The notes under the pieces: generated by a model
Database searches by the model: none
Told to the model about the DNA's origin: nothing
The model's input: the letters and a program-made list of their open reading frames with translations, nothing else
Source: a virus
Strand: one strand, 5' to 3'
DNA length: 38,040 bases
IMG/VR virus record: IMGVR_UViG_3300018954_000017
Location: 66,216 to 104,255 of that record
Translations under genes and position numbers: made by a program
Part shown: in pieces, positions 2,300 to 34,979 of the stretch
Numbering within the stretch: the first letter of the stretch is position 1
How the letters are laid out: each line of letters begins with the position of its first letter

Positions 2300-5050
2300 T
2301 TGGCAAATGTGATTGAGGGACATCAATACGACCCATATTCGATAGAAGGCTCCGGCATCGTCGGCGGACTGCTGGGCGGCGGCGGCTGCTTTGTCGCTGG
2401 TACACTAGTCTGGACTCCGAGTGGACTCAAACCGATTGAAACCCTTCAGGTTGGCGACCTCATCGTTGCCTTTAAGCCTGATGGGTCACTTGTCACGTCT
2501 GTAGTTGAAGCAACTCATGTCCACGAGCAATACTGCGTCAATCACTACACTCTCTGGAATGCTGAGTTTACAGCCACCCCAAATCATCACGTACTGACCG
2601 CCAACAACGCCTACAAAGCACTCCAAGACTTCGAGATAACCGAATGCCTTGTTGATGCTTTAGGCGAGCTACAGCCGCTTCTGGCGGTTAAAGCTGAACC
2701 TGAGTTGACAACGGTTTACAACCTTACTGTTCAACCCTGGCACAACTACCTTGTGACACCAAAAGGCATCCGCTGTTCAAACGGTGGCGGCGGTAAGTCA
2801 GGTGGAGGGAAGGCAGAGAATGATGCCTACAAAAGTAATGCAACGGCATACATTGTAGAGCTATTGAGTGCTGGAGTTGTCGAAGGAATTGTTGGTGGGC
2901 TTCAGGGAATCTATTTTGACCGCACTCCTGTTCAGAATACGGATGGATCGCTTAACTTTAAAAACTTTCAATATGATTTTCGTCCTGGCACTCAGAATCA
3001 AACGTTTATGCCGGGATATTCTGATGAAATTTCATCAGAGAAAACGGTAGATCAAGAAGTCAAACAACAATTACCAATTTCCAGAACCGTTGTTAGCTCA
3101 GAGATTGATGGCATTCGTGTTCGATTGGCGCTATCGCAACAAAAGCAGGAGGACAATGGTGACGTTGTAGGAATGACTTTACAGTATAAGATTTTTGTCA
3201 AACAAGGAGGTGGTGCTTTTGAGTTACGGGTGAATGAAACTAAATCTGGTAGGTTTTCTTCACTTACTGAATTTGAATATTATCTTCCTGTCAACAATTT
3301 CAACAATACAGTTGATCAGTTCACTGTCAGAGTTGAAAAGGTAACCGCAGATATCGCTGAGGGAGACACTAAGCAGCAACAGACGCTCAAGTGGCAGTCG
3401 TATACAGAGGTAATCGAAACAAAACTTAACTATGCGAATTCGGCTGTTATCGGTGAGCAATTTAATCCAAAAGACTTTTCTTCAATACCTAACCGTCAAT
3501 ATAAGTTAGCTGGCGTCCTTATTCAGATTCCAACTAATGCAACGGTTAACCCAACAGATCGTGGATTAGACTTTATATCGGATATCTGGGACGGTACGTT
3601 CTACACGCCAGCATTAGCTTGTGCCGATCCAGCTTGGATTGCCTACTACCTAATGACTGATCCCATCAACGGATTGGGGCGTTACATTGATGCTCCCTCG
3701 ATTGACAAGTGGAGTCTCTATCGGTGCAGTCTTTATAACAACCAGATGGTTGGTAATGGACTGGGTGGCACAGAGCGCAGATTCCTTTGTCATACGGTGT
3801 TGCAACAGCGAGAGGATGCTTGGAAGGTGTTAGAAGCGGTCTTCAGCGCTTTCAATTGCAGCCATTATTGGGCAGATGGAACAGTCTATTTTGTTCAAGA
3901 CCGTCCGTTACTGCCGGGAGAAGAATATAGTTGGCAATTCACTCAAGCCGATGTTCAGGGTGGTCAATTCGTCTATAGCTATTCAGCACTACGAACGAGA
4001 TCTTCAGTTGCAATGGTTACCTGGAACGACCCTAGCGACTATTACAATCAAACGATTGAACCTGTAGAAGATGCTAATGCTTTAGCGAAATATGGCTATA
4101 AAGAGATAGAGTTTGCCGCATTCGGTTGCATTTCTCGTGGACAAGCCATCCGAAAGGGTCGCTATGTACTTTTTAGCAATAATCAAGAAACCCAAACGGT
4201 TAGCTTTAGTCCAAGATCTTTTGCAGCTTATGTCAGACCTGGTGAAATCATCCAAATAGCAGATGCCAAACGAGCCGCTATCAGGTACGGGGGGTTGGTT
4301 AAACAGGCAGACTTTAGCAGTATCCTCATAGACTCACCTGTTGCAATCCTCAGTGATGGATACCGTTTGACCTGTATGATGCCGGATGGAACGTTAAATA
4401 CTCGTAACATTGTCAATATTTTGGGCACACACACTACCCTCTTTGTTGATGTAGAGTTTAACGACATTCCTTTACCAGAATCTAACTGGGTTGTTTCTGC
4501 TCCAAATGTCCAACCGCAGCTCTTTCGTATCATCAGTAATGCAATTGATACTACTGATCCTACAAAACATGTGATAACAGCATCATTGTATATTGCAGAC
4601 AAATATGACTACATAGAAAATGGATGGGATATTCAGGAACAGCCCATACGTCAAACCATTCCAACAGTAGTATCGGCTCCATTGGGTATGAAGTTGACAT
4701 CTACTACAGTTAACGGCGCACCCACCCTATTTGTTATATGGCGAAGACCCTTGACCGAAATTGGAGAGATTGATCCGTTTGTAGACTCCTATCAAGTTGA
4801 ATTATCCCGCGACTTTATTACTTGGGAACAATCCAGAATTGTGACTAATAATAATACCACTTATCAGAACGTGACACCTGGAGTCTATTACGGACGAGTG
4901 CAATCAATAGATATCAGTGGTAGAACATCTGAATTTATTTACTCAACAGCATTCACGGTTCAAGTGAATCAAATACCACCAATGCCCATTACAACCGAAA
5001 CTCAAGACTTTACCAATCCAGGCAATAGTTCAAACGTGTTCTTTTTCTAA
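2300..5050 (+). CDS. phage tail tip / host-specificity protein J-like with N-terminal Hint domain and C-terminal FN3-like domain
   Basis: Lambda J-like motifs: LLSAGVVEG, FRPGTQNQT, WDGTF..DPAW, FGCISRGQAIRKGRY, RPGEIIQIAD..YGG. Confidence 0.9.
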   Translation: MANVIEGHQYDPYSIEGSGIVGGLLGGGGCFVAGTLVWTPSGLKPIETLQVGDLIVAFKPDGSLVTSVVEATHVHEQYCVNHYTLWNAEFTATPNHHVLTANNAYKALQDFEITECLVDALGELQPLLAVKAEPELTTVYNLTVQPWHNYLVTPKGIRCSNGGGGKSGGGKAENDAYKSNATAYIVELLSAGVVEGIVGGLQGIYFDRTPVQNTDGSLNFKNFQYDFRPGTQNQTFMPGYSDEISSEKTVDQEVKQQLPISRTVVSSEIDGIRVRLALSQQKQEDNGDVVGMTLQYKIFVKQGGGAFELRVNETKSGRFSSLTEFEYYLPVNNFNNTVDQFTVRVEKVTADIAEGDTKQQQTLKWQSYTEVIETKLNYANSAVIGEQFNPKDFSSIPNRQYKLAGVLIQIPTNATVNPTDRGLDFISDIWDGTFYTPALACADPAWIAYYLMTDPINGLGRYIDAPSIDKWSLYRCSLYNNQMVGNGLGGTERRFLCHTVLQQREDAWKVLEAVFSAFNCSHYWADGTVYFVQDRPLLPGEEYSWQFTQADVQGGQFVYSYSALRTRSSVAMVTWNDPSDYYNQTIEPVEDANALAKYGYKEIEFAAFGCISRGQAIRKGRYVLFSNNQETQTVSFSPRSFAAYVRPGEIIQIADAKRAAIRYGGLVKQADFSSILIDSPVAILSDGYRLTCMMPDGTLNTRNIVNILGTHTTLFVDVEFNDIPLPESNWVVSAPNVQPQLFRIISNAIDTTDPTKHVITASLYIADKYDYIENGWDIQEQPIRQTIPTVVSAPLGMKLTSTTVNGAPTLFVIWRRPLTEIGEIDPFVDSYQVELSRDFITWEQSRIVTNNNTTYQNVTPGVYYGRVQSIDISGRTSEFIYSTAFTVQVNQIPPMPITTETQDFTNPGNSSNVFFF
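2387..2782 (+). other. Hint (intein-like/BIL) domain within the J protein
   Basis: CFVAGTLV...ATPNHHV...VYNLTVQPWHNYLV...IRCSN, 132 aa. Followed by Gly, so there is no +1 C/S/T. Confidence 0.85.
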
Positions 5051-5907: not shown

Positions 5908-8900
5908 GTGATCACATCATAAAGCATGAATTGTAGCTCGTCGTCCTCTTTCGGCTCAACCCTAAATCTCCCAACAAACGCCAACTTATTCTCAATTGCC
6001 TCTATAACTTGTGGCTTTGCTAATGCTTTGTAGTAAGCAACAGCTTCCACAGTCGTGCCACTGTGGTCTTCAAGCACCAATTCGTACCGAGGGTTCCCAG
6101 AAGATTTGGCAATCTTGTAAACTTTGTCGATGATGGCACAAGCTACATCGACAAAGTCTGGCGGTTCAACTCCATCTTCGTTGACAATTGGAAAGCTATC
6201 ACGCTGAGATAATTCTTCGACGGGGTTGGATGTTATAAAGAATCCTGTGAATTCCAATTCTTTCCGTAATCTCTCGTCCATTGTAAAATCATCTTCAATT
6301 TCAACCAGATAGAAGTTTTTGCGGTTGTATATCTCAGACAGCTCCTTTTCTTTCCGAACAATGAATTCAACATCTGCCGTCTTCGTTTTATTTAATGGCT
6401 CATTTTCGTAGACAAATGTTTCTAAAGCTTGGCGACTGCGCTCTAGTCCTAACTTGGTGTATCTCTTTTCAATGGATTCGGTTGTTCTCGCCGCTGCATC
6501 ATCCATTGCTTCATACTTCTTCTTCCAATCCTGCAACAATTTAATTGACTCAATCAACTGCTTGCGATTGTCACAGATGCAATCTAAAGCGCCAGAGTAG
6601 GCAAGAGCCGACAGAGCTTTTACGTTGATGCGGGTGCGAAGAAATATGTCAACTAATGATGTAAATTCACCTTCTTGACGAGCATTGAGGATAGCCTGGA
6701 TTGCTGTATCCCCTAAATCTTTGATCAGTCGCAAGCCAAAGAAGACTTTGTTTTCAGAGGATGGTGTAAAGTTCTCACCTGATATATTGATGTCTGGTGG
6801 CAATACCTCAACACCTGATTTTTTGGCAAGTTTGATAAACTGACGTGCCTTCTTGACATCAGTACAACTCAGGAATGCGGCAATATATTCGGCAGGATAA
6901 TTGGCTTTCAGGTAAGCACACTGGTAAGCAAGATACGAATATCCAACGGAGTGGCTATTTGAGCAACACAGACCAGATGCCAATAGAAAATTGTGTTCCG
7001 GATGGTCTACTTCAAGATCGTAACCTTGACGGAATCCCAAGAAAGAGATTCGTACAGGCTTCCGTAACACCTTACTCCTGTCCAGCCCAAATCCTGAATT
7101 ACCTTCAGTAATTGTACCAGAGTAAACCCAGCTTTTCCTATCTCCCCAGTATGGGAATTGAAGTTCTCCATCGATAAACGAATTAGTCGCCAAGAGCGTT
7201 TTATAATTTCCGCATCCAACATTCTGTCTCTCTGTTGTGTTCTTTCTAACAACTCTGTCCCGTGGATAGGCAAAAAGTGCCAAACTCCATCCACTTCGAT
7301 GATTGTCTTGCTGTCCCTGTGGATTAGGTCTATCTGTTTCTTCCTGCCAGAACAGTCTATCCGCGTATTCCGAATAAACCCCATATGTTCCAATCTTGCA
7401 ATCAACCACACTTCCATTCGAGAAGCATTCTTGGGTGACGACTGAGCTTTGATTGTAATTTCCTGAAATTTCTCTGGATTTTCTTCTCTCCATTTTTTCA
7501 AAGGGACAGCACGAGCCTGCTGAATTTCCGGACGCGCAGATGTTTTCTTCGCTGTTTCCGAATACTTTTGTCTCATTGCTGGTGTGTGGACTAAAGTTTT
7601 GCAATTGTTCACTCTCGTCTTTCTGTGTAACTCCTGACACTGGGGGCAAGACCGATAATGCAAAGATTTCTCTTTCTGTGTTGGAACTGTGACCCCACAC
7701 AATGTGGTTCTGGGTTTCGCTCCTGTTTTGCTGGTAGAGATGCAATGAATGCATTCTTTGTGGTGAGCAGTCAGTTTCTTTTTGGAGCTTACTGCTACCC
7801 CACACCGAGTAACCCATCTTGAGTATTTTCCAGAGCGGAAGTTGTCCATCTTTAGTTAGCCATTTGTGATCTAAAGTGCAACATTCGACACTGTTGTCGT
7901 CAAATGTAACTTGCCACAAGGGAACCATCCCATGATCATGTAGAGCTACAACAGTTGACTCGGACAAAGAGCCGTCCGGATTCATTGACAGGACACGATC
8001 TCCAGGTAGGCAGTCCTTGATAGGCTTGTTACCACCCATTATATAGATTTCTGTGTCTTCGTGTACTGTTTTGTTGAAACCGTACTCCCCGAAAGTTTGA
8101 ACTTTATCAAAAAATTGGTTTAACTTGACCTCATCAAACCCCCTCGACGTGCCCCCTTCAAGAAAATCTTTTCTCTCTTTAGGCATCTTATCGACTTTCT
8201 TTTTGCCCACAACAGAACGCAATTGATCCGCTCTAGTGTCGTCAAAGCCAGCTAGAACCTGCGAAGACTTCATTACCGACTCTTGATACACCAGCACACC
8301 ATACGTGTCCTCTAGAGCCTCCTGAAGCTCTGGGAAGTCATATTCAACGGGTTCCTTGCCGTGTTTACGTGCAATATATCTTGGAATCATTCCTGAGTCT
8401 AACGCGCCAGGTCGATAGAGTGCATTGACGACAGACAGATCTTCAACTGTGCTGGGCTGAAGTTGCTTCAGAATCCCTTGCATTCCTTTGCTGCCAAACT
8501 GGAAAATGTCCTCAGTTAGACCACGAGAAAAAATTGTATAAGTTGCTGAATCATCCATCGGCAAATCATCAACATCTACTGTTTCCCCTCTGTTTTGTTT
8601 GATATTAGCGACAGCTTCGTCAATAATTGCAAGATTGATTAATCCCAAAAAATCCATTTTGAGAAAGCCGAACTTAGGCACCATGTTCATATCATACTGA
8701 GTCACAACAGTGCCGTCATCCATCACCATCAATGGAATTAATTTCTCAATATCACTCCCAGCAATAACAACACCAGCTGCATGTACGCCAACGCTAGCTA
8801 AAGCTCCTGAAACTTGAATTGCTATGTCTATCCAGCGCTTGAATTCAGTATCCTTTAGATATCTTTCGCGAAACTCTGGTACTGGAGTGTCTTCAGCAAT

Positions 8901-12119: not shown

Positions 12120-12785
12120 TCAACTGATTGCTTTGGCTTGCCAATAGGCTTCAGGTAGACCACGCATCATGTTTTCGTGACGAGCAGCGGCATCAACAAA
12201 CTTTGACATCCTGTTGAGTAGCGCGGACATATAAAGGATGTTTTGACCAAGTTCAACAATATCCTCTGGACGATCTACGAACCAGTCATAGATATTGCGA
12301 ATTACTCGATCATGATACATCCAGCCAACATATTCAGTCTCAAGTTTACGAATTAATTCATTGAGGTGATAGAGGCACCAGACCTCATAATTCTTTACAC
12401 TATGAACAAAATCTGGCGCATTCGGCAGTTCGCTTTTGTATGCGATTGTTTTTTCTGCCAATTCATCAATGTAGTCTTGTGAAGGAACATTTTTGGGTGA
12501 ATCGCCTAGATAATGAGCAAACCCGCTATAGCAAGCCATTGTCATCTCAATGATCTTTAGCTGCTCGTGTAATCCTTCGGTGACAAAGGTCAATTGTTCA
12601 ATGTCTAAGATTTTGTTGAGAAACATCCGGGCTTCTTCGGCACTGTGGTAGACCCGACAGATTGAACCATCTTTACGATCTTCAATCTTAGTCTTGATAC
12701 GATCTCCCTCGCGCACACTCATGTAGTTGGTGTAGCCGCGATCACCAGTACCAGGATGGTATTTTGTATGAAGTCTACTTGTCAT
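12120..12785 (-). CDS. divergent PduO-type ATP:cob(I)alamin adenosyltransferase-like protein
   Basis: N-terminal GTGDRGYT (PduO TGDxGxT) and C-terminal LNRMSKFVDAAAR (PduO LNRLSD..AR). Coupled to the B12-dependent nrdJ. Confidence 0.65.
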   Translation of the reverse strand: MTSRLHTKYHPGTGDRGYTNYMSVREGDRIKTKIEDRKDGSICRVYHSAEEARMFLNKILDIEQLTFVTEGLHEQLKIIEMTMACYSGFAHYLGDSPKNVPSQDYIDELAEKTIAYKSELPNAPDFVHSVKNYEVWCLYHLNELIRKLETEYVGWMYHDRVIRNIYDWFVDRPEDIVELGQNILYMSALLNRMSKFVDAAARHENMMRGLPEAYWQAKAIS

Positions 12786-15700
12786 TACTTAGCCTCCGGC
12801 ATCATGCATTTATCTGAATCGCATCCGACAACACCCTGATCTTTGTTCCACCCCCGATCGTACTTCTCAAGTAGTCCCTGAAAATCTTCCGATTGACGAC
12901 GGCTCAACACTTGCCGCTGTAGTTTATCGTAGCGTTCTTTAGAGATTGGCTCGAATGGTAAGCGAGGGTAGGTTTCGTTAGCATCAAATCGAGCGAGTAG
13001 GGCACAGCTGATGTAGCCTTCGTCATCCGCAATTGCATTGTAAATAAGATTGCCAACAGTTTCAATTTCGTGCTCTCGTAACTCAATTGTGGCACTCACG
13101 TTATGACCTGCATAATACTTCTGAACTTGCATGTAAAAGGAAAATTGAGCCTCTGCACTGAACTTACTAATGTCAATCTGATCCGCCCCCGGTAAATTAG
13201 CCCAAGATACCTCAACCGGAATCTCCACCAGCCACTCGGTTACCCGTGGGTCAAACGGGTCATCTAACAATCGCCCTTCGTCATCCTTGCAAGATTGCGA
13301 AGGTAGCACAGAATAGCCGTAGTCCATACAAGCGAGCGCTACAGGGTCATGAGAAGTGAATGTTATGCGACGGATGTACCGTTGCGCCTTGGGCGGGTGC
13401 CAGCCTGCCGAAGCGCCTGTAAGAAGACTTTTGGTATTGTGAGATTTAATCGCTCCTTGCCAATACCAGGAATCATCATCGTCAACTCCTTCAACAGCAA
13501 CATCATAGCTATAATCTGGGACACTTTCAAATTCAATTTTTTCAACTTGATATGGGTTGAATTTGAATTGACGTTTGGGATACGGAATAGGATATTTAGC
13601 CGCTTTTACACTCATCTGATTTAATTTTTCAATGGATTCCCATTCAGAGGTCATACGGCTTAAATTCAAAACCCACATAGAGCAAGTTAATTGAAAGTTT
13701 TCGCCTTTAGTCTCGTGATTAATTGAAAAACTTAACCCTACTGACTCGCCAATTTGCTGAAGATTACGCAGGAAGTTTTCACTAGCGCTTGTTATTCTAA
13801 CGCAGCCTCTTTCTTCTATTGCACCATCAGAATCAATCATACCACTAAAAAAAGCCAATATACTATTTCGAGAAGATTGCCTCAAAGCTTTTGGGATACG
13901 ATCAAGATAAGCACTTTTAACGGACTTACCTAATGAATGATATTCCATCCAAGCAAATAGCGGCTGACTAGCAAAGCAGAGTTCAGATCGACCACCACGA
14001 CTGTCTGGGTGCAATGTGCCTTTCAATCCGAATAAAGACTCTCCAATCTGACTTAATTTTTGGAGAATATTTTCGTTTCCGCTACAAAAACGAACTCGAT
14101 GTTTTCCGAGACTCATTGAACCGTCACCATAAAGCATTCCTAAAAAATAAGCAAGTTCAGGGCTTACGTTTTTAGGAGTGTTTATTTTATTTGCTGAACG
14201 ACCAAATTTGGATTGTTTTTCCGTGTTAAATGGTTTATCGGAAAAAGAGAATTCGGTTTCATTTCGGTATGTACCTAATTTAAAATCTAACTGCATTCCT
14301 GGAATCATTTCCGAGGCAAACACCCAGTCTCCCTGCACAGATAGCCTGTGATTAGGGGTCATTCTTAGGACTCGTCCGTTTGCTAAGGTTATCTTGACAA
14401 GTTTTAAAGGTTGGTTGGCTATACCTTGATTAACTTGAATTCCGCCACGAACACTAAGTTCTAAACATTTAAATTCTCCGCTTCCAGGATTCATTAATTC
14501 ATCAGCGTACAAAAGACCCTGATCAAAAATGCGAAGTGCGTTTTTATCCAGACATCCCGCAGGCTGAACAGTTGTGTAACGATTGGGGCGTTTGAGATTG
14601 TGCTTGTTGCAATAGTCGAAGAGTTTGACCCGGACGTATTCTTTCCAGTAGCTAAGATAACGACGTTCAAGATCGCAATATAAAAGACCTTCGTTAAAAT
14701 CGTTTTCCTCCGAATAAACCTCATCATCTTCATTTATACCCAGTAGCTTGGCAATCTTATCAATGCGACCGTAATCATCAGCGGGTATATACCACTTTTC
14801 AGGTCTTCCTTCAGCCCACCAACGCAACCAATCGCTACCAAATGCTTGCACAAAAAAGTCAAACAATCCAGTGAAAGACACACCCACAATTGGGTCAAGT
14901 TCGCGACTGATACGATAGCGCTCATCAGGAAACACATGATGCAGTAGAGCGGCTACAGACAGTGCTCCAGCTTCAAAGGCTAGCTTTTGTTGGGCGAGGT
15001 CGAGGGGATTGATTTGGTTGAGGTGGATTTCTGAAAGGTCACAGAGAAAATCTTTTCCGAGAATTTCTCCACAATTGTGAGCCACAAAACCTTCAACCAC
15101 TCCCCAGTGTTCTAGTGGCTCCGTGAAGTCGTAGACTTTTGCTGTACCTGCTGGATTCACCGATCGAACTTTTGGTGCATTGTTTGTTAAGTGACATGCT
15201 AATTTTTCTGTTTTGTACTGAATAGAAAATCCAATTTCATTGAAGAAAGTGCAACGATGCTCGTATTTTTGGATGTTGACATCATAGCTTTCTCGACACT
15301 GATATACACCATTTGCAAACTCAATCATTTTGGGTTTGTTTGTTGTATAGTAAGCGTCAATTCCAAAATCTTCACACAAACTGCCCAGTAACTGTTCGAC
15401 AAGAACAAAGGAAGTTGTTTTGAAGCTGATTCTGCCACCAGCAATGACAGATCCATTTGCTGAGTACAAACCGTTTAGGAATGCAGCTTTTTCACTCTTA
15501 TTCCAGTCAGAATAAGTTCCGGGTAATTTTCTTTCTGGTAATTGTACAAAATGAAAATCTAGGCTGTGCAACTGTTCATTAAAACCGTACAGATAAATAT
15601 GTCGATCTCCTTGCCAATTAAACTCGTAATTGTTGGCTTCAATTAAACTCAAAATATCTGTGTCATCTTTGCCAATGTTTACGACTACACCTAAACACCC

Positions 15701-17257
15701 TTTTGTGAATGCCGACTGCGAAAGTTGTCCGTCTCCTTGAATAAATCCCAACACTTTGAATTCAACATTATGTTCCGGATTCTTCAAGTAGGGCACCAAT
15801 TGCTTTTGCTTGCATTGGCTAGCCATGAACTGTCCTTCCGTTGTCAAAAATACATGGTCGGCAGTGCAGTAGATTCTCTCCTGAGTTGTTAAATTCAGGT
15901 AAACGATTCCCTTTTCACCAGAACACCAAACTTTTGATTGCGATACATTTCCGAACGCATTTATAATTAGTGGTTCTGTATCTTCGAGTTCCTCAAAAGT
16001 TTTGTACCCATCTACAGTCAACAAACGCATATCTCCCCGAAAACAAGGGTTTAATCCTACTCTAGACATCCGATGCTCTAGCTCTGCATCAGATAACTCT
16101 AGACCCTTTTGTTTGGCAAAAGCTTGTAAGTTGGTTTTTGCAATTTGCGGACTCAACTCATAGGCACGTAGGAAGATAGATTTGTTTCCATTATCCAACA
16201 GATCAGCATTAGCCCTCGCCACAGCTTCTCCAGCCCACTGAATCGCTCCCTCGCCGCTATAGAACTGCTTCCGTACAGCCTCAACGCACTCTTGTAACGA
16301 TGGCTTGTAATGGTATACACGGGTATGATTGCTCATGCGTAATGCGTCTCTTTCAGGGTCAATGCGCCAAGTTCCGTCAGCATCTTGCACCCAAAGATTC
16401 TCCTTCAGTAGCGGTGCATCTGAGTCAAACTGCCTCATACCAGCGTAACGGCGGACATTACCTGCCACAATAGTCAGCGCTGGTTCATCCAATAGCAGGC
16501 AGACACCCTCAGCATCCAACTGCCGACCAACGTAGCGATTGAGTACTGCGGCTACACGTTCGTAGAGGCGGGAGAGTTTGATGGGGTTAGCGACTCCTCC
16601 AAACCCTTTGATAGGTGTTCCGTCAGGGCGGACGGATGATATATCAACCGAGATGTTTACATGGTTAGAAGTCTCTCCATAAGTTAGTAAATCTTCAAAT
16701 GCTAGCTTTAGTACAGTCATCATTGAGTCAACCCACCCTTGTCGGGAATCTCCAACAACAACTTCAACTTCCAGTCCTATTTCTGTTCCATAGGCTTCAA
16801 CGTAAGTTTTATCCAACCGCACCGCATGCTGCCCTGGCTCACCAATGACCCGCACTTGCAAGCTATTGCGAACTGGAGGAAGCTGAGAGATATAACGGTC
16901 TTCTAGGACGGCACCTGTCCCACATCCCATCATGCCAAGAGACATCATTAGACCGAAGGATTCGAGATCGTTGATGTTTGTAGAGTTGCAGTTGTAAGCA
17001 GAGTAGAAGTTTTCAGGATTCTCAATCCACTCAGTTCCACCAACCCACATCCAGCGACCAGATGGCAGGGTAATTTTCTGTTCCATCATGTCGGCAACTA
17101 AGGCGAATTCATCAGCGTTAAACTTGCCAACTTTTGCAAGTCCTTGGCTAGTTCTTTCGGTTACGTCGGCATAGTTTTCGCGATTGCCTTCCACACGCCG
17201 ACTATAGGTACGATAGAAAGTTGGAGCACTTGTTGCTGCTGGAAATTCTTGGTTCAT
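12785..17257 (-). CDS. nrdJ: class II (AdoCbl-dependent) ribonucleotide reductase with two inteins
   Basis: FYRTYSR, LPSGRWMWVGG, YNC, GNVRR, NP|CGEI, TTVQPAG|TKSLL, and C-terminal GCDSDKC. Confidence 0.95.
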   Translation of the reverse strand: MNQEFPAATSAPTFYRTYSRRVEGNRENYADVTERTSQGLAKVGKFNADEFALVADMMEQKITLPSGRWMWVGGTEWIENPENFYSAYNCNSTNINDLESFGLMMSLGMMGCGTGAVLEDRYISQLPPVRNSLQVRVIGEPGQHAVRLDKTYVEAYGTEIGLEVEVVVGDSRQGWVDSMMTVLKLAFEDLLTYGETSNHVNISVDISSVRPDGTPIKGFGGVANPIKLSRLYERVAAVLNRYVGRQLDAEGVCLLLDEPALTIVAGNVRRYAGMRQFDSDAPLLKENLWVQDADGTWRIDPERDALRMSNHTRVYHYKPSLQECVEAVRKQFYSGEGAIQWAGEAVARANADLLDNGNKSIFLRAYELSPQIAKTNLQAFAKQKGLELSDAELEHRMSRVGLNPCFRGDMRLLTVDGYKTFEELEDTEPLIINAFGNVSQSKVWCSGEKGIVYLNLTTQERIYCTADHVFLTTEGQFMASQCKQKQLVPYLKNPEHNVEFKVLGFIQGDGQLSQSAFTKGCLGVVVNIGKDDTDILSLIEANNYEFNWQGDRHIYLYGFNEQLHSLDFHFVQLPERKLPGTYSDWNKSEKAAFLNGLYSANGSVIAGGRISFKTTSFVLVEQLLGSLCEDFGIDAYYTTNKPKMIEFANGVYQCRESYDVNIQKYEHRCTFFNEIGFSIQYKTEKLACHLTNNAPKVRSVNPAGTAKVYDFTEPLEHWGVVEGFVAHNCGEILGKDFLCDLSEIHLNQINPLDLAQQKLAFEAGALSVAALLHHVFPDERYRISRELDPIVGVSFTGLFDFFVQAFGSDWLRWWAEGRPEKWYIPADDYGRIDKIAKLLGINEDDEVYSEENDFNEGLLYCDLERRYLSYWKEYVRVKLFDYCNKHNLKRPNRYTTVQPAGCLDKNALRIFDQGLLYADELMNPGSGEFKCLELSVRGGIQVNQGIANQPLKLVKITLANGRVLRMTPNHRLSVQGDWVFASEMIPGMQLDFKLGTYRNETEFSFSDKPFNTEKQSKFGRSANKINTPKNVSPELAYFLGMLYGDGSMSLGKHRVRFCSGNENILQKLSQIGESLFGLKGTLHPDSRGGRSELCFASQPLFAWMEYHSLGKSVKSAYLDRIPKALRQSSRNSILAFFSGMIDSDGAIEERGCVRITSASENFLRNLQQIGESVGLSFSINHETKGENFQLTCSMWVLNLSRMTSEWESIEKLNQMSVKAAKYPIPYPKRQFKFNPYQVEKIEFESVPDYSYDVAVEGVDDDDSWYWQGAIKSHNTKSLLTGASAGWHPPKAQRYIRRITFTSHDPVALACMDYGYSVLPSQSCKDDEGRLLDDPFDPRVTEWLVEIPVEVSWANLPGADQIDISKFSAEAQFSFYMQVQKYYAGHNVSATIELREHEIETVGNLIYNAIADDEGYISCALLARFDANETYPRLPFEPISKERYDKLQRQVLSRRQSEDFQGLLEKYDRGWNKDQGVVGCDSDKCMMPEAK
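13436..14554 (-). mobile_element. nrdJ intein 2 with in-frame LAGLIDADG endonuclease (373 aa)
   Basis: CLDKNAL...MTPNH...FLGMLYGDG...FSGMIDSDG...SYDVAV...KSHN|T. Confidence 0.92.
15074..16045 (-). mobile_element. nrdJ intein 1 with in-frame LAGLIDADG endonuclease (324 aa)
   Basis: CFRGDM...CTADH...LGFIQGDG...FLNGLYSANG...VYDFT...AHN|C, immediately before the catalytic Cys of NPCGE. Confidence 0.92.
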
Positions 17258-28202: not shown

Positions 28203-28348
28203 AATCCTCTCTCCTTTTTAAGTGCTTCTTGGATGATCCCAGCATACGTTAGCGACCAAGTGATTGCAATGGTATTCTCTTGCTCGTCTACAAGCTTGTA
28301 GTGTTCGCTTCGACGATCAAAATTTACCACAAAAATATCAACTTTCAT
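28199..28348 (-). CDS. 49-aa hypothetical protein coupling the helicase to the RNA ligase
   Basis: MKVDIFVVNFDRRSEHYKLV...ERGL*, with ATGA overlaps at both ends. Confidence 0.55.
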   Translation of the reverse strand: MKVDIFVVNFDRRSEHYKLVDEQENTIAITWSLTYAGIIQEALKKERGL

Positions 28349-31300
28349 GTCTCCCCCTCGTATCCCTCAAAGTACTCCAATTTCAGTCCAGCACACGGTA
28401 GCTGCATTAGCTTCTCTAGCTCAACAGGATCACGTTCTAACGGTACGAAATACATGGCAGCTTTTGACCGCGTTAGGGCTACGAATGTTGCATATATTTC
28501 CTGTTGGAACTGCCAATTTAACATTCCCATTCTGTAGTATGGTAACAGATTGATACCCACCACGTAAACTCTCTGAGATTCATCACCTTTTGCCGAGTGA
28601 ATGCTGCTGTAGATTACGTGTCTCGTCCGGTCTTCCTCTTCCACCGGGAATACCTCCTCAATCTTCTCTACAAACTCCTTCACTGACTCGGCAGATTGCC
28701 CTAGGAACTCGTAACAGTACTCTAGACACCGATAGCGGTCTTCAGTTGCATCAGCTTGCGTGAGCTGTCCAGCAAGCTTGTAGCGTTCAACGAGGTACTC
28801 CTTCTGTTCGAGCAGTTTAGAGTGAAAGTCACCCCACTTACAATTCTTACCAATCTGCTTTGCAAACCCGCCCATCTCTTTCGCAATGTCTCGTGCCCGG
28901 ACAACTCCCTCAACTCCATTGAAAAATTTGGCTTCGAGAAAAAGTTTGATGAGTGGTGCGACGAACCTGCACAACACTAAATCTCCCGGTTGTACAGATG
29001 ACTTGACTGTATCAGGATGCATTAGCTCACAGGTGCCGTCTATGGCATCCTGTCGGGCTTTCATTTGAGGACTGATAAGTGAGGCAAGAGCGACATGACT
29101 TTTGGGACAGCGCTGGGATTCTGAGAGTGGGAGAACTTTGGCGTTGAAGAGTTTAATGATGGTCTCCATTGCTGTAGGTAACGCTGCCATGTACCCTGAG
29201 ATAGATTGTTTTTCGTCGCCCACAAAAATACAACGGTATCCGACAAGTTCATACTTTTTGTAGAGCGATATAAAGGCACGGTTAGCATCCTGACAATTAT
29301 GGGACAAGATGCCGTTGCCGAAAAAGTTGTGGTTATCTTCTACGTCGATGCAGTAGACCCACTCTTCTTCAGTTTGATTTTTTGTTGAGTCAATATTCCT
29401 CCACATTTGCTGCTGCAAGTTTGTGGATAAACTCCAGCTTCTTTCTTGCAATTGTTGTGATATCGGTAGAGAGTACCGCAGATTGGGCAAGGACGCTTTT
29501 GTAAATGTTCTCGTTGCTGTTGGATTCTTAGTATACGACCACATTCCCTGCTGCACGTCTTGTACCAAACTTCCCCAGTTTTGATATCGAGACGACTCTG
29601 ATAGTCTTTGTTGCAGACCGGACATGAATATGTTTTTAGGGGATTTGTCGCTGAAGCTTTTCTCGCCGCCTTCTGGCAACTGCTGCTGCAATAGTAACGG
29701 GAGTAAGCTTGGGTTTTCGTACAGAGATACGTTTCGTGTTCCGTTCCACAGTGGTTGCAGGGTTTGGTGGTTTGAATTACAGACTGTTTGATCTTTAGTG
29801 TTTCCGGAGTGCACCCCGAATTTAGTTTGTAAGAAAGAGATGGATGGATATATGGTCTGATTAGTTGAAAAAACGCATCTCGTCCATGCGCTGAAAATGT
29901 CAGTATTCCTCCTTTGCTCGTTGGTGTTGCTTGAGAATTGCAACCCAAAGAAGTTAGGTATTCTGCTGCCAATGCAATTTCTTTCATCGAAAAAGCATAA
30001 GTTGAAATCTTTGCTTGACCGCTGAAACTCCCGTCGTCCATAAACCATACTGCCAAAGCCAACGGATTTAGTTGACTCAGAACCGCTTCTGTGATTTGTT
30101 TTTTCTGACCCGTTGGTTTGAACAGGTGATATATCTCTGTGAATAGTGGGTGAGAAATTGTCGCAAAACTCCGAACCACTCCACCAAACTCGGTTGGCAT
30201 TAATGGTGACAGACCTTTGTTCCCAACCCAACGATTCAGACTGTCGTGCTTCCACTGAAGATAATCTTGTTGTGCTACTCCATGTCTGAAGGATATCCGG
30301 GCATTCCCCATTTTGCCTTTCCACCTGCTGATTCCGAACGAAGCATCGCCAAGAAGCGACCCAATGATAATCGAACGCTCGGTCGTCGTTAGTTTGTCTG
30401 AAGGATTGTAGTTTTTGACCATCGATTTGAAGCAGTGAATGTTGTGGTTTTAATTGTCCTGCGTAGATGTATCCCTGCTCTTTCGTGTACACCGGATGAT
30501 TATCGGTAGCCTGTAGTCCACAAACGTTAACAATAGCTCGATTGTGTCGTTGAACTTTATACCATCCAGTAATTTTCTTAACTTCAATTTGTTGGCTAGA
30601 TGTATTGAAGCTCAAAATGTCTAATGATAGTTTATCTCGAACTATTTCGTCAATACGTTTGGTGCGACCGTCTGCAAGACTAACCAATGTGTCGCCCGTG
30701 ACGCACTCGTCAATCAGCAGATAACTCTTTTCCGCTTTTGGTGCCTGTGGATACAATTTTAATTTATGTGGCAACCAGACCATATCCGCATAATCGATTA
30801 CGTGGTCATATGCGCCCATTCGATAGCAGTCTTCCAGCAAGTCCATTGCAATTTTGACTCCCCACGCAGTTCCAGGTTTACCAAAAGGGAACCTGATCGC
30901 AAAGTAATTGACTACCCAATCCATTGAGTCAACATTGTCATCGGCTAAGTTCAATCGCGCAAAGTCAAGCAAACTCTTTAGCGACTCTTGCCATCTTTCG
31001 AGCAATAGCTCTGCCCTTTCGCTGTCTTCAGGCAACCTTGGTGGTGCAATTGGGTATCGGCGGCTTTTGTCAGCTATGACTTCTTTGAGACGATTTAGCC
31101 CCCATTGAGCTAACTTGTCAGCCTTGTGTTTGTCTACCTCCGGCATTTCTCCTTTGAACTTTCGGATAAGCAGAGCTTCGCCGCAACCGTGAGCTGTTGA
31201 AACATTTACACGTTTTGGTATTCTGGGATCTTGTTCAAATGCCAACTTGACAGATTTGTTGAACATCATTACGTTGATTTTTACGTTTGGAGGCAAAAGT

Positions 31301-31521
31301 CCAACTATTCCTTTTAGAAGAGTACTTTTGCCAGAACCTGCGGTAGAAGATACCACTAAATTTTCATCACTTTCCTGCAATTCTTCAAATACTTTTATTT
31401 GGTATTCATTCCAAGGAATTGCTGAGATTACCTCTTTACTCCAACGTCTCGGTGTCCACTCATCCTGCTTAACTATACTCGCAACAGTTTTTTCACGTTT
31501 AGCTTTAGCTGCCATGAACAA
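28345..31521 (-). CDS. UvrD/Rep-like SF1 helicase with intein
   Basis: TAGSGKST, LIDE|CQD (Walker B), VGDEKQSI, SQRCPK, SIHSAKGDE, VALTRSK. Confidence 0.92.
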   Translation of the reverse strand: MFMAAKAKREKTVASIVKQDEWTPRRWSKEVISAIPWNEYQIKVFEELQESDENLVVSSTAGSGKSTLLKGIVGLLPPNVKINVMMFNKSVKLAFEQDPRIPKRVNVSTAHGCGEALLIRKFKGEMPEVDKHKADKLAQWGLNRLKEVIADKSRRYPIAPPRLPEDSERAELLLERWQESLKSLLDFARLNLADDNVDSMDWVVNYFAIRFPFGKPGTAWGVKIAMDLLEDCYRMGAYDHVIDYADMVWLPHKLKLYPQAPKAEKSYLLIDECVTGDTLVSLADGRTKRIDEIVRDKLSLDILSFNTSSQQIEVKKITGWYKVQRHNRAIVNVCGLQATDNHPVYTKEQGYIYAGQLKPQHSLLQIDGQKLQSFRQTNDDRAFDYHWVASWRCFVRNQQVERQNGECPDILQTWSSTTRLSSVEARQSESLGWEQRSVTINANRVWWSGSEFCDNFSPTIHRDISPVQTNGSEKTNHRSGSESTKSVGFGSMVYGRREFQRSSKDFNLCFFDERNCIGSRIPNFFGLQFSSNTNEQRRNTDIFSAWTRCVFSTNQTIYPSISFLQTKFGVHSGNTKDQTVCNSNHQTLQPLWNGTRNVSLYENPSLLPLLLQQQLPEGGEKSFSDKSPKNIFMSGLQQRLSESSRYQNWGSLVQDVQQGMWSYTKNPTATRTFTKASLPNLRYSLPISQQLQERSWSLSTNLQQQMWRNIDSTKNQTEEEWVYCIDVEDNHNFFGNGILSHNCQDANRAFISLYKKYELVGYRCIFVGDEKQSISGYMAALPTAMETIIKLFNAKVLPLSESQRCPKSHVALASLISPQMKARQDAIDGTCELMHPDTVKSSVQPGDLVLCRFVAPLIKLFLEAKFFNGVEGVVRARDIAKEMGGFAKQIGKNCKWGDFHSKLLEQKEYLVERYKLAGQLTQADATEDRYRCLEYCYEFLGQSAESVKEFVEKIEEVFPVEEEDRTRHVIYSSIHSAKGDESQRVYVVGINLLPYYRMGMLNWQFQQEIYATFVALTRSKAAMYFVPLERDPVELEKLMQLPCAGLKLEYFEGYEGET
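29296..30705 (-). mobile_element. intein in the helicase Walker B motif (470 aa)
   Basis: CVTGDTLV...ATDNHPV...VYCIDVEDNHNFF..ILSHN|C. Confidence 0.92.
29340..30422 (-). CDS. LAGLIDADG_2 (I-SceI-like) homing endonuclease with C-terminal Zn-finger repeats, in the +1 frame inside the helicase intein
   Basis: IIIGSLLGDASF ... LNPLALAVWFMDDGS ... RPYIHPSLSYKL. Repeats CNHC/YCSSSC, CPVC/TCSREC and CPIC/TCSSKC. Confidence 0.88.
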   Translation of the reverse strand: MVKNYNPSDKLTTTERSIIIGSLLGDASFGISRWKGKMGNARISFRHGVAQQDYLQWKHDSLNRWVGNKGLSPLMPTEFGGVVRSFATISHPLFTEIYHLFKPTGQKKQITEAVLSQLNPLALAVWFMDDGSFSGQAKISTYAFSMKEIALAAEYLTSLGCNSQATPTSKGGILTFSAHGRDAFFQLIRPYIHPSLSYKLNSGCTPETLKIKQSVIQTTKPCNHCGTEHETYLCTKTQAYSRYYCSSSCQKAARKASATNPLKTYSCPVCNKDYQSRLDIKTGEVWYKTCSRECGRILRIQQQREHLQKRPCPICGTLYRYHNNCKKEAGVYPQTCSSKCGGILTQQKIKLKKSGSTAST

Positions 31522-33962: not shown

Positions 33963-34979
33963 TTAGCTAACAGACAACAGACTTCTATCAAAATCCAACA
34001 CTTCACCATCATCAAACCTAGTCTGCAACAGGCGCTCTTGCAGGCATTCGCCCAACACTCCGGCTTGGTGAGCTTCTCGACAGAATGCTTTCCAATCGAA
34101 GGAGCCATCGGTGTAGTATGCATAGAGCATCTTCTTAAATTGCAGCCAGAACCAACAGATTGCCCGTTGGTCGAAGTGAAACAAGTCTAACTCATATCTC
34201 TTCGGTTCGCCATCGGGTGCAACGTTGTACGCGCAAACGAGTAAACCTTGATTGAGTCGGTACTTGTTCTCAGTCAATTTATTAAATGCCGCTGAGTAAG
34301 CCGACAATTGCAGCGCATATTTGATGAGAGGAAAATAGGGACTTGGGGGCTTGTACTTATTCCCCCGTGTATACTCAATCGGATTCTTTTTCTTATTGAA
34401 ATTCTTCCAATCGAGAACGACCAACGCATAGCTCCGGTTGCCATCGGTAAATAGTGGTTTGACATTAGTTGGCAACAGCCGACAATCGACCAACTTGTAA
34501 GCATCAGCCGTGCCACCGAAACCGATTGAGGGGTCATTCTCGTCGTGCCACATGATTTTCTTTTCAAGGGCAATAGGTTTGATGTAGGGAAAAAGACACT
34601 CGAAGGGTTGGATAAGTTGCTCCTCTTCTTCATCCAACTTGATCTTCGCCCGTAGCTCAACCAAAGCCTGCTGTTGTTCAGCTCCAGAAAGCCCCTGAAG
34701 GCGCGAGTGCTCTTGAATAAGCAAATGGTCATGATAGCACTTGAAGTGGTTCTCAAGGGCGTTGTGGGTCTTAGTGCCGTGGGTTGCAGCGGTGTCGCGA
34801 ATTCTCTCAGACTCTTCTTTTCCGACCCGTCTCTGCCAGCCAGCCAGGAAGGATTTGTCTTCAAATTTGCTGAGGATAGTTGTGACCGAACTAAACTTTT
34901 TGTCACCCCACGCATATTTCCTGCCACCGGGGGCGTTGATCTGAATTATCTCTTGGTCATTCCAAACGTCGATTTGCAT
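33963..34979 (-). CDS. PD-(D/E)xK phage exonuclease-like protein
   Basis: SVTTIL..WQRRVG..GTKTH..GTAD..LDWK..LQLSAY. Confidence 0.8.
   Translation of the reverse strand: MQIDVWNDQEIIQINAPGGRKYAWGDKKFSSVTTILSKFEDKSFLAGWQRRVGKEESERIRDTAATHGTKTHNALENHFKCYHDHLLIQEHSRLQGLSGAEQQQALVELRAKIKLDEEEEQLIQPFECLFPYIKPIALEKKIMWHDENDPSIGFGGTADAYKLVDCRLLPTNVKPLFTDGNRSYALVVLDWKNFNKKKNPIEYTRGNKYKPPSPYFPLIKYALQLSAYSAAFNKLTENKYRLNQGLLVCAYNVAPDGEPKRYELDLFHFDQRAICWFWLQFKKMLYAYYTDGSFDWKAFCREAHQAGVLGECLQERLLQTRFDDGEVLDFDRSLLSVS

Follow-up and report, generated by a model that had tools for sequence, protein, structure and literature searches.

A phage helicase intein overlapped by a predicted LAGLIDADG_2 homing endonuclease gene in the +1 frame

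Introduction

Inteins whose endonuclease is read in another frame than the splicing domain have been described in bacteria and phages. The cyanobacterial dnaX intein carries an out-of-frame, I-WcaI-like LAGLIDADG endonuclease under purifying selection (Phillips, DeSimone, Gogarten; 10.64898/2026.09.14.751524), and that report credits the DnaX intein with an out-of-frame endonuclease to Gorbalenya 1998. In actinobacteriophage inteins LAGLIDADG and Vsr-like nucleases are encoded antisense, the same-strand case is endonuclease VII-like and lies in frame 3, and the second ORFs are typically located outside the splicing domain (Gosselin, Arsenault, Gogarten; 10.1101/2025.01.02.630785). In fractured genes with split inteins a separate endonuclease ORF lies between the intein halves and overlaps the downstream half (Dassa et al. 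2009, PMC2677866), and in ShiLan an out-of-frame HNH insertion with its own start resides in an open phage gene (Arsenault et al. 2025, PMC11855218).

Here we analyze a stretch of 38,040 nucleotides (the window), the final 38 kb of a 104-kb virus record (IMGVR_UViG_3300018954_000017). The source virus is probably a cyanophage, because the nearest relatives of its ribonucleotide reductase are the enzymes of Cylindrospermopsis and Synechococcus phages. A preliminary description of this DNA had reported two inteins, in a helicase and in dnaE, each overlapped by a +1-frame nuclease ORF, and had suggested a general class of such inteins; this class is not new, being already contained in 10.64898/2026.09.14.751524 and 10.1101/2025.01.02.630785. 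The helicase intein resembles the dnaX intein in its insertion site and selection pattern, and differs from it in frame, domain order and nuclease clade.

Results

The helicase gene, its intein and the overlapping ORF

The features of the locus are as follows.

28345..31515, minus strand: UvrD-like (SF1) helicase precursor gene, 1056 aa (weak Pfam UvrD matches)
30706..31515, minus strand: N-extein, 270 aa, ending in Walker B (LLIDE), from the sequence
29296..30705, minus strand: intein, 470 aa, C271 to N740 of the precursor, recognized by Cys1, the block-B TxxH (T67/H70), the terminal His-Asn and the Cys+1 that follows
30424..30705, minus strand: N-terminal splicing region, intein residues 1-94, single-coding (pLDDT 77-90)
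29368..30333, minus strand: stop-free, disordered host-frame linker, intein residues 125-446 (pLDDT <50, identity matching that of an off-frame control, stop avoidance)
29296..29367, minus strand: C-terminal splicing region, blocks F and G, intein residues 447-470, its first codons overlapping the 3' end of the nuclease ORF
28345..29295, minus strand: C-extein, 316 aa plus stop, starting with Cys+1 (CQD), from the sequence
29340..30422, minus strand: +1-frame ORF, 360 aa, predicted single-chain LAGLIDADG_2 endonuclease with a Cys-rich tail (ATG at 30422, TAG at 29342-29340)
29823..30395, minus strand: LAGLIDADG_2 domain, aa about 10-200 (profile and fold matches)
29400..29759, minus strand: Cys-rich tail, aa 222-341, with three CxxC...CSxxC units, putative zinc ribbons (from the sequence)

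Our delineation of the intein (30705-29296, 470 aa) reproduced exactly the coordinates of the preliminary description. The helicase ORF matches the Intein_splicing profile (E=2.7e-12), and the insertion point falls in the Walker B motif, at DE/CQD (the slash marks the junction). Residues C1, T67, H70, H469 and N470 are invariant in seven homologues, Cys+1 is present, and the Hint fold is complete in the structure model, in which 132 of the 139 residues of the Mtu RecA mini-intein were aligned (Z=19.3, rmsd 1.9). The insertion is precise and in frame, as the intein-free allele P0285 carries an uninterrupted DE-CQD; the predicted spliced helicase has 586 aa and intein-free relatives have 563-595 aa. 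Residues, fold and insertion together indicate a class 1 cis-splicing intein that is predicted to splice. Class 3 inteins carry the triplet Trp B12, Cys F4 and Thr G5; a class 3 assignment was rejected, as the block F Cys is present (YCIDV) but position B12 holds Val and position G5 Ser. Block F (within 29296-29367) and its homologues carry this Cys in place of the usual Asp across the clade of this nuclease. A fractured gene with a split intein was ruled out, the precursor being one 1056-aa ORF. The linker had been called featureless and stop-free; it is stop-free and disordered over residues 125-446, but residues 95-124 are modelled as folded.

The overlapping 360-aa ORF stood as described, on the same strand with an offset of +1 and with a match to LAGLIDADG_2 (PF03161; E=6.3e-30). 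It also matches the I-SceI profile (E=1.6e-16), and a Foldseek search with its structure model (pLDDT 83) returned I-WcaI (6X1J, top match, E=1e-11) and I-SceI. D26 and D130, at the positions of the catalytic Asp of both LAGLIDADG motifs, are invariant among homologues. These matches indicate a single-chain LAGLIDADG_2 endonuclease of the I-SceI type, with cleavage predicted. As for the tail, named a Zn-finger in the preliminary description, the Cys-rich CxxC units are present and vary in number between homologues, while in Pfam no family scored above the cut-off and zinc-finger matches were weak. The ATG of the ORF sits in GAT GGT CAA (D-G-Q) of the host frame and its TAG in GTA GAA of YCIDVE.

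Selection on both reading frames

A nuclease codon that precedes a codon starting with AA, AG or GA creates a host-frame stop if its third base is T. In eight loci T was found at 0 of 670 such stop-risk positions, against 667 of 1908 third positions (35%) elsewhere. Synonymous recoding of the nuclease introduced ~22 host-frame stops on average and none of 2000 resamples was stop-free; the probability of a chance open frame is about 1e-14; for the helicase overlap about 22-24 host-frame stops were expected and 0 observed, and the remaining four reading frames hold 15-22 stops each. Comparison of 12 homologue pairs revealed the greatest variation at the nuclease third codon position, with an identity of 44-70% in the nuclease frame and 17-39% in the host frame, the off-frame extein control giving 23-37%. 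Together, these sequence comparisons show that both frames are under selection, the amino-acid constraint following the nuclease frame and the host frame being mainly kept stop-free. The earlier proposal of a real dual-coding intein is thus upheld, and host-frame stops in homologous linkers, named as the observation that would speak against it, were absent from all 22 distinct loci.

A candidate splicing-fold strand over nuclease motif 1

A short segment of the overlap departs from the picture of a passive linker.

30343..30363, minus strand: candidate dual-function segment, intein residues 115-121 and nuclease motif 1 (GSLLGD) (model strand, third-base constraint)

In-frame LAGLIDADG_2 inteins carry a hydrophobic V/I/L-x-x-V/I/L pattern before block F in 31 of 33 cases, whereas only 1 of 20 +1 inteins does. 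The structure model places a confident strand at intein residues 117-121. Since residues 1-94 and 447-470 total 118, fewer than the 132 Hint-aligned positions, the alignment must include part of residues 95-124; the role of strand 117-121 is deduced here from these aligned lengths, the fold comparison being one without a residue-level alignment. Independently, nuclease codons 20, 22, 24 and 26, which set host residues 115, 117, 119 and 121, are four of the top five constrained synonymous columns of 202 and supply three of the four synonymous sites with the strongest constraint outside those already counted. For the second Leu of GSLLGD, 14 of 14 Leu-bearing members use CTT, which yields host Trp119 (codon 30351-30349 in this helicase; tail P 3e-9, uncorrected for relatedness); among free relatives 24% have T at this codon, and among in-frame relatives 8%. 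We lean towards the explanation that the +1 lineage lost the strand preceding block F and forms a replacement, at residues 115-121, by reading the first LAGLIDADG motif in the -1 frame.

The fixed third bases might instead reflect an RNA or DNA signal, such as a hairpin 60-80 nt after the ATG, and a hairpin of -8 to -11 kcal/mol is indeed possible in this helicase and in L004, L013, L021 and L173. We consider this unlikely, given that the stem is poor or otherwise paired in L003, L007, L174 and L177, that in the strong hairpins the invariant T is a loop base, and that constraint falls on every second residue (115, 117, 119, 121), the spacing of a beta-strand, where the model has its confident strand.

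Expression of the nuclease

The preliminary description left internal initiation and +1 frameshifting equally open; the comparative data favor the former. A start codon is found 19-20 codons before motif 1 in 14 of 14 clade members (12 ATG, 2 GTG) while the host residues vary, and in 10 of the 14 a +1-frame stop lies 1-2 codons upstream of it. The start region is less folded than the gene median in 12 of 14 members, and in this gene it is among the weakest 1% of windows. No Shine-Dalgarno sequence was found at the 30422 start (dG -0.3), nor a consistent one across the clade members. The only sigma70-like site upstream, at 30653-30624, was discounted, one site being found and 1.4 being expected in shuffles, i.e. 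chance level. Because the ATG/GTG is conserved with +1 stops just upstream, internal initiation is the likely route of expression.

A programmed +1 frameshift near 30422 would fuse the nuclease to the N-extein and the intein N-part, and would fit the lack of a Shine-Dalgarno sequence in most members and the AAAAA run that follows the start in many of them, this helicase included. This route is improbable: it offers no reason for keeping ATG or GTG in all 14 members while host residues vary, the upstream stops of the ten members leave almost no room for a shift, and the A-run, missing in L008 and L021, is accounted for by Lys-Asn codons.

Distribution, relatives and mobility

Six-frame classification of 253 loci (copies included), from a homologue set seeded with the nuclease and biased toward intact copies, yielded 27 loci of the +1 layout, 45 in-frame inteins and 176 loci without an intein. 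The +1 layout comprises 22 distinct loci, i.e. this helicase and 21 others, in hosts that include UvrD-like (SF1) and DEAD-type (SF2) helicases, terminases and a TraD-like ATPase, so that the suggestion of a general class of inteins with out-of-frame nucleases holds across several host proteins. These loci come mainly from viral or metagenomic contigs, and also from one Nostoc and two archaeal genome bins. All +1 loci carry the CxxC tail. Thirteen +1 members make up the clade of the helicase nuclease, the only one with good support (SH-aLRT 100, quick tree), to which the truncated contig L176 (L176:1-1662) is added; in L176 a transposase-like ORF follows the nuclease in place of the intein C-part. 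The trees did not establish a common origin for the whole set of +1 LAGLIDADG_2 inteins, as they require 4-6 changes and their deep branches are weak. A search of viral contigs with the helicase or the C-extein as query returned no related loci. One helicase with a +1 intein has another intein farther downstream (L005:5001-8741), and in two close helicase relatives (P0286, P0291) Walker A (GK/ST) holds a different intein, an in-frame LAGLIDADG_3 one, while Walker B is empty.

Three intein bearers among twelve close helicases do not form one clade (AU test p=7e-44), and two of them have empty sisters at 94% extein identity (P0122/P0285 and P0123/P0292). Because empty alleles with 94% identical exteins exist, the intein lineage is probably mobile by homing, although repeated precise loss could also give rise to a patchy distribution. 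Recent homing is supported for these relatives and not for the present copy, since the empty allele nearest to this helicase is only 77% identical. In P0123 the +1 residue is Cys, whereas the empty sisters of this allele carry Leu, a difference consistent with co-conversion during homing; at this position the remaining empty alleles read Ala, Ile, Thr or Cys. In the nearest intein-free allele (P0284; L273:89-1858) the motif II region is divergent, with DE/AMD rather than DE/CQD, and this allele is possibly homing-resistant.

The dnaE intein and other inteins of the record

The second overprinted intein served as a comparison case.

6957..8069, minus strand: dnaE intein, 371 aa, holding a +1 ORF at 7849-7007 of a weakly DUF559/Vsr-like family

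Its layout is as first described, with the ATG of the +1 ORF within GAT GGA CAA and the TAG within GTA GA of YDLEVD, and the helicase and dnaE nucleases do belong to unrelated families. T was absent from all 79 stop-risk sites of the dnaE overlap. The dnaE ORF family has 318 relatives, with weak similarity to DUF559; one of them (L271) is an overprint too, with an open host frame, and another (L272:3099-6715) is a free ORF in dnaE, between split intein halves, of the fractured-gene type. The features that the two inteins share around the start and stop of the nuclease, put forward earlier as a common design, did not survive comparison: the host-frame residues at the start differ among homologues (DG, ND, NG, HE, YD, SE), and 10 of 11 ordinary non-RecA in-frame inteins likewise have a +1 TAG in block F, so that the shared TAG, a by-product of block F codons, is no evidence of design. 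The dnaE intein has an atypical splicing signature, starting with Thr (FNK/TVH junction), with Trp after the block-B His, and ending in CCSN/S.

Only three same-strand nested ORF pairs (ATG ORFs of at least 100 aa) exist in the genome, two of them within inteins. A 217-codon same-strand ORF (34274-34927, minus strand) is nested in a nuclease-like gene (33963-34979). The class II ribonucleotide reductase gene (12785-17257, minus strand) contains two ordinary in-frame LAGLIDADG inteins, and thus canonical and out-of-frame inteins occur in one genome. A Hint domain flanked by Gly runs is found at the N-terminus of a tail-tip protein (2300-2810, plus strand).

Discussion

The locus is likely to be a self-splicing, mobile intein that has its homing endonuclease encoded by a distinct gene, overprinted in the +1 frame. 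According to this model, the helicase mRNA would be translated in full, intein included, and the Hint domain would excise itself, restoring DE-CQD in Walker B; splicing is predicted because the catalytic residues and the fold are intact, and it is assumed to proceed despite a disordered insert of about 320 aa. Ribosomes would also start at the ATG at 30422, an unstructured A/T-rich site lacking a Shine-Dalgarno sequence, and, as start conservation suggests, would produce a free LAGLIDADG_2/zinc-ribbon nuclease ending at the block-F TAG. In co-infection this nuclease would cut intein-free helicase alleles near the Walker B codons, and repair would copy the intein with flanking bases, the Cys+1 codon included, both steps being suggested by the distribution. 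The linker would be passive except for the short stretch over motif 1, where a Hint strand is probably encoded in the host frame.

Alternatively, the ORF could be a relic in decay, left when an in-frame nuclease lost its frame and its expression, with the open frames as leftovers. An in-frame LAGLIDADG_2 intein does exist at the same DE/CQD site, in L012, and in the SF2 +1 subgroup the spacing from block B to the nuclease is 39.3 codons, some 2 bases less than the 40-41 codons of in-frame inteins. A relic is nonetheless very improbable in view of the purifying selection on the nuclease frame over deep divergence, the open frames of the 22 loci, the invariant catalytic residues and the conserved start. 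An assembly artefact, i.e. two compensating indels in an ordinary intein of a metagenomic virus record, is scarcely conceivable, as indels cannot give 360 stop-free codons in a second frame (P about 1e-14), distant homologues have the same offset, and assembly error is excluded by the independently assembled contig P0121, which has the identical open 1056-aa frame with one substitution.

The SF2 spacing, together with a loose clustering of the SF2 +1 subgroup with in-frame SF2 inteins, hints that this subgroup descended by frameshift from an in-frame intein. For the clade of the helicase nuclease, both a frameshifted in-frame ancestor and a free nuclease that invaded the intein are conceivable. 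Split forms (L075, L272) may represent an alternative route of origin. In L075 (2210-4869) the intein is split-like: the stop of the ORF for N-extein and intein N-part overlaps the ATG of the next ORF, which comprises LAGLIDADG_2, a CxxC tail, the intein C-part and the C-extein and keeps the strand before block F; it is a possible intermediate form, but its nuclease belongs to another clade.

The out-of-frame design appears to be old and mobile in this lineage, and one phage has two unrelated versions of it. Gene callers show such inteins as nuclease-less or break the host gene (in L009 and L010 only the nuclease and the C-half were called), and the mobility of such inteins is therefore under-counted. 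If the host frame does draw a strand from motif 1, a single stretch of 21 bases would specify both a core strand of the splicing fold and the first active-site helix of the nuclease; splicing would be tied to the nuclease gene and decay to a mini-intein hindered, which would bear on nuclease gain and loss in the intein homing cycle. It would be a compact, testable case of two enzyme folds on one stretch of DNA.

Comparison with known systems

We compared the locus with three dnaX loci, from Nostoc sp. JL33 and its order. Like the helicase intein, the dnaX intein has a Walker B DE/C site, a disordered open host frame, a same-strand overlapping LAGLIDADG_2 ORF resembling I-WcaI, frame-dependent selection and a patchy distribution. 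The dnaX nuclease, however, lies in the +2 rather than the +1 frame, carries CxCGC motifs on its N-terminal side whereas the helicase ORF has its Cys-rich tail at the C-terminus, and forms a separate nuclease clade. The dnaX inteins keep the strand before block F that the +1 lineage mostly lacks, their nuclease ORF stops upstream of block F whereas the helicase ORF overlaps it, and their host is a chromosomal clamp loader and not a phage helicase. Judged by sequence, the helicase intein works like the dnaX intein, yet it is not of the dnaX lineage, because the +2 frame, the N-terminal CxCGC motifs and a clade of its own set the dnaX nuclease apart.

Like the actinobacteriophage inteins, it has a phage host, its nuclease is read in a frame of its own, its linker is unstructured and there are signs of ongoing transfer; unlike their ORFs, the helicase nuclease ORF extends into block F and probably covers a Hint strand. 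In-frame LAGLIDADG_2 inteins of the canonical RecA type have the same nuclease family in a similar place after block B, but in frame, with a CxxC tail in 1 of 45 loci and the pre-block-F strand kept in 31 of 33; the intein at the same DE/CQD site in L012 (1516-4122; MT835601.1), a gut phage helicase, is in frame. In fractured genes (PMC2677866) the host frame is broken and splicing occurs in trans, whereas here one frame is continuous, and the ShiLan insertion, unlike the helicase intein, has no splicing domain and belongs to the HNH family. The open frame, the disordered linker in the model, the selected ORF and the sporadic distribution identify the helicase intein as a non-canonical intein with an out-of-frame endonuclease, in which a Hint strand sharing DNA with nuclease motif 1 would be new relative to the published class.
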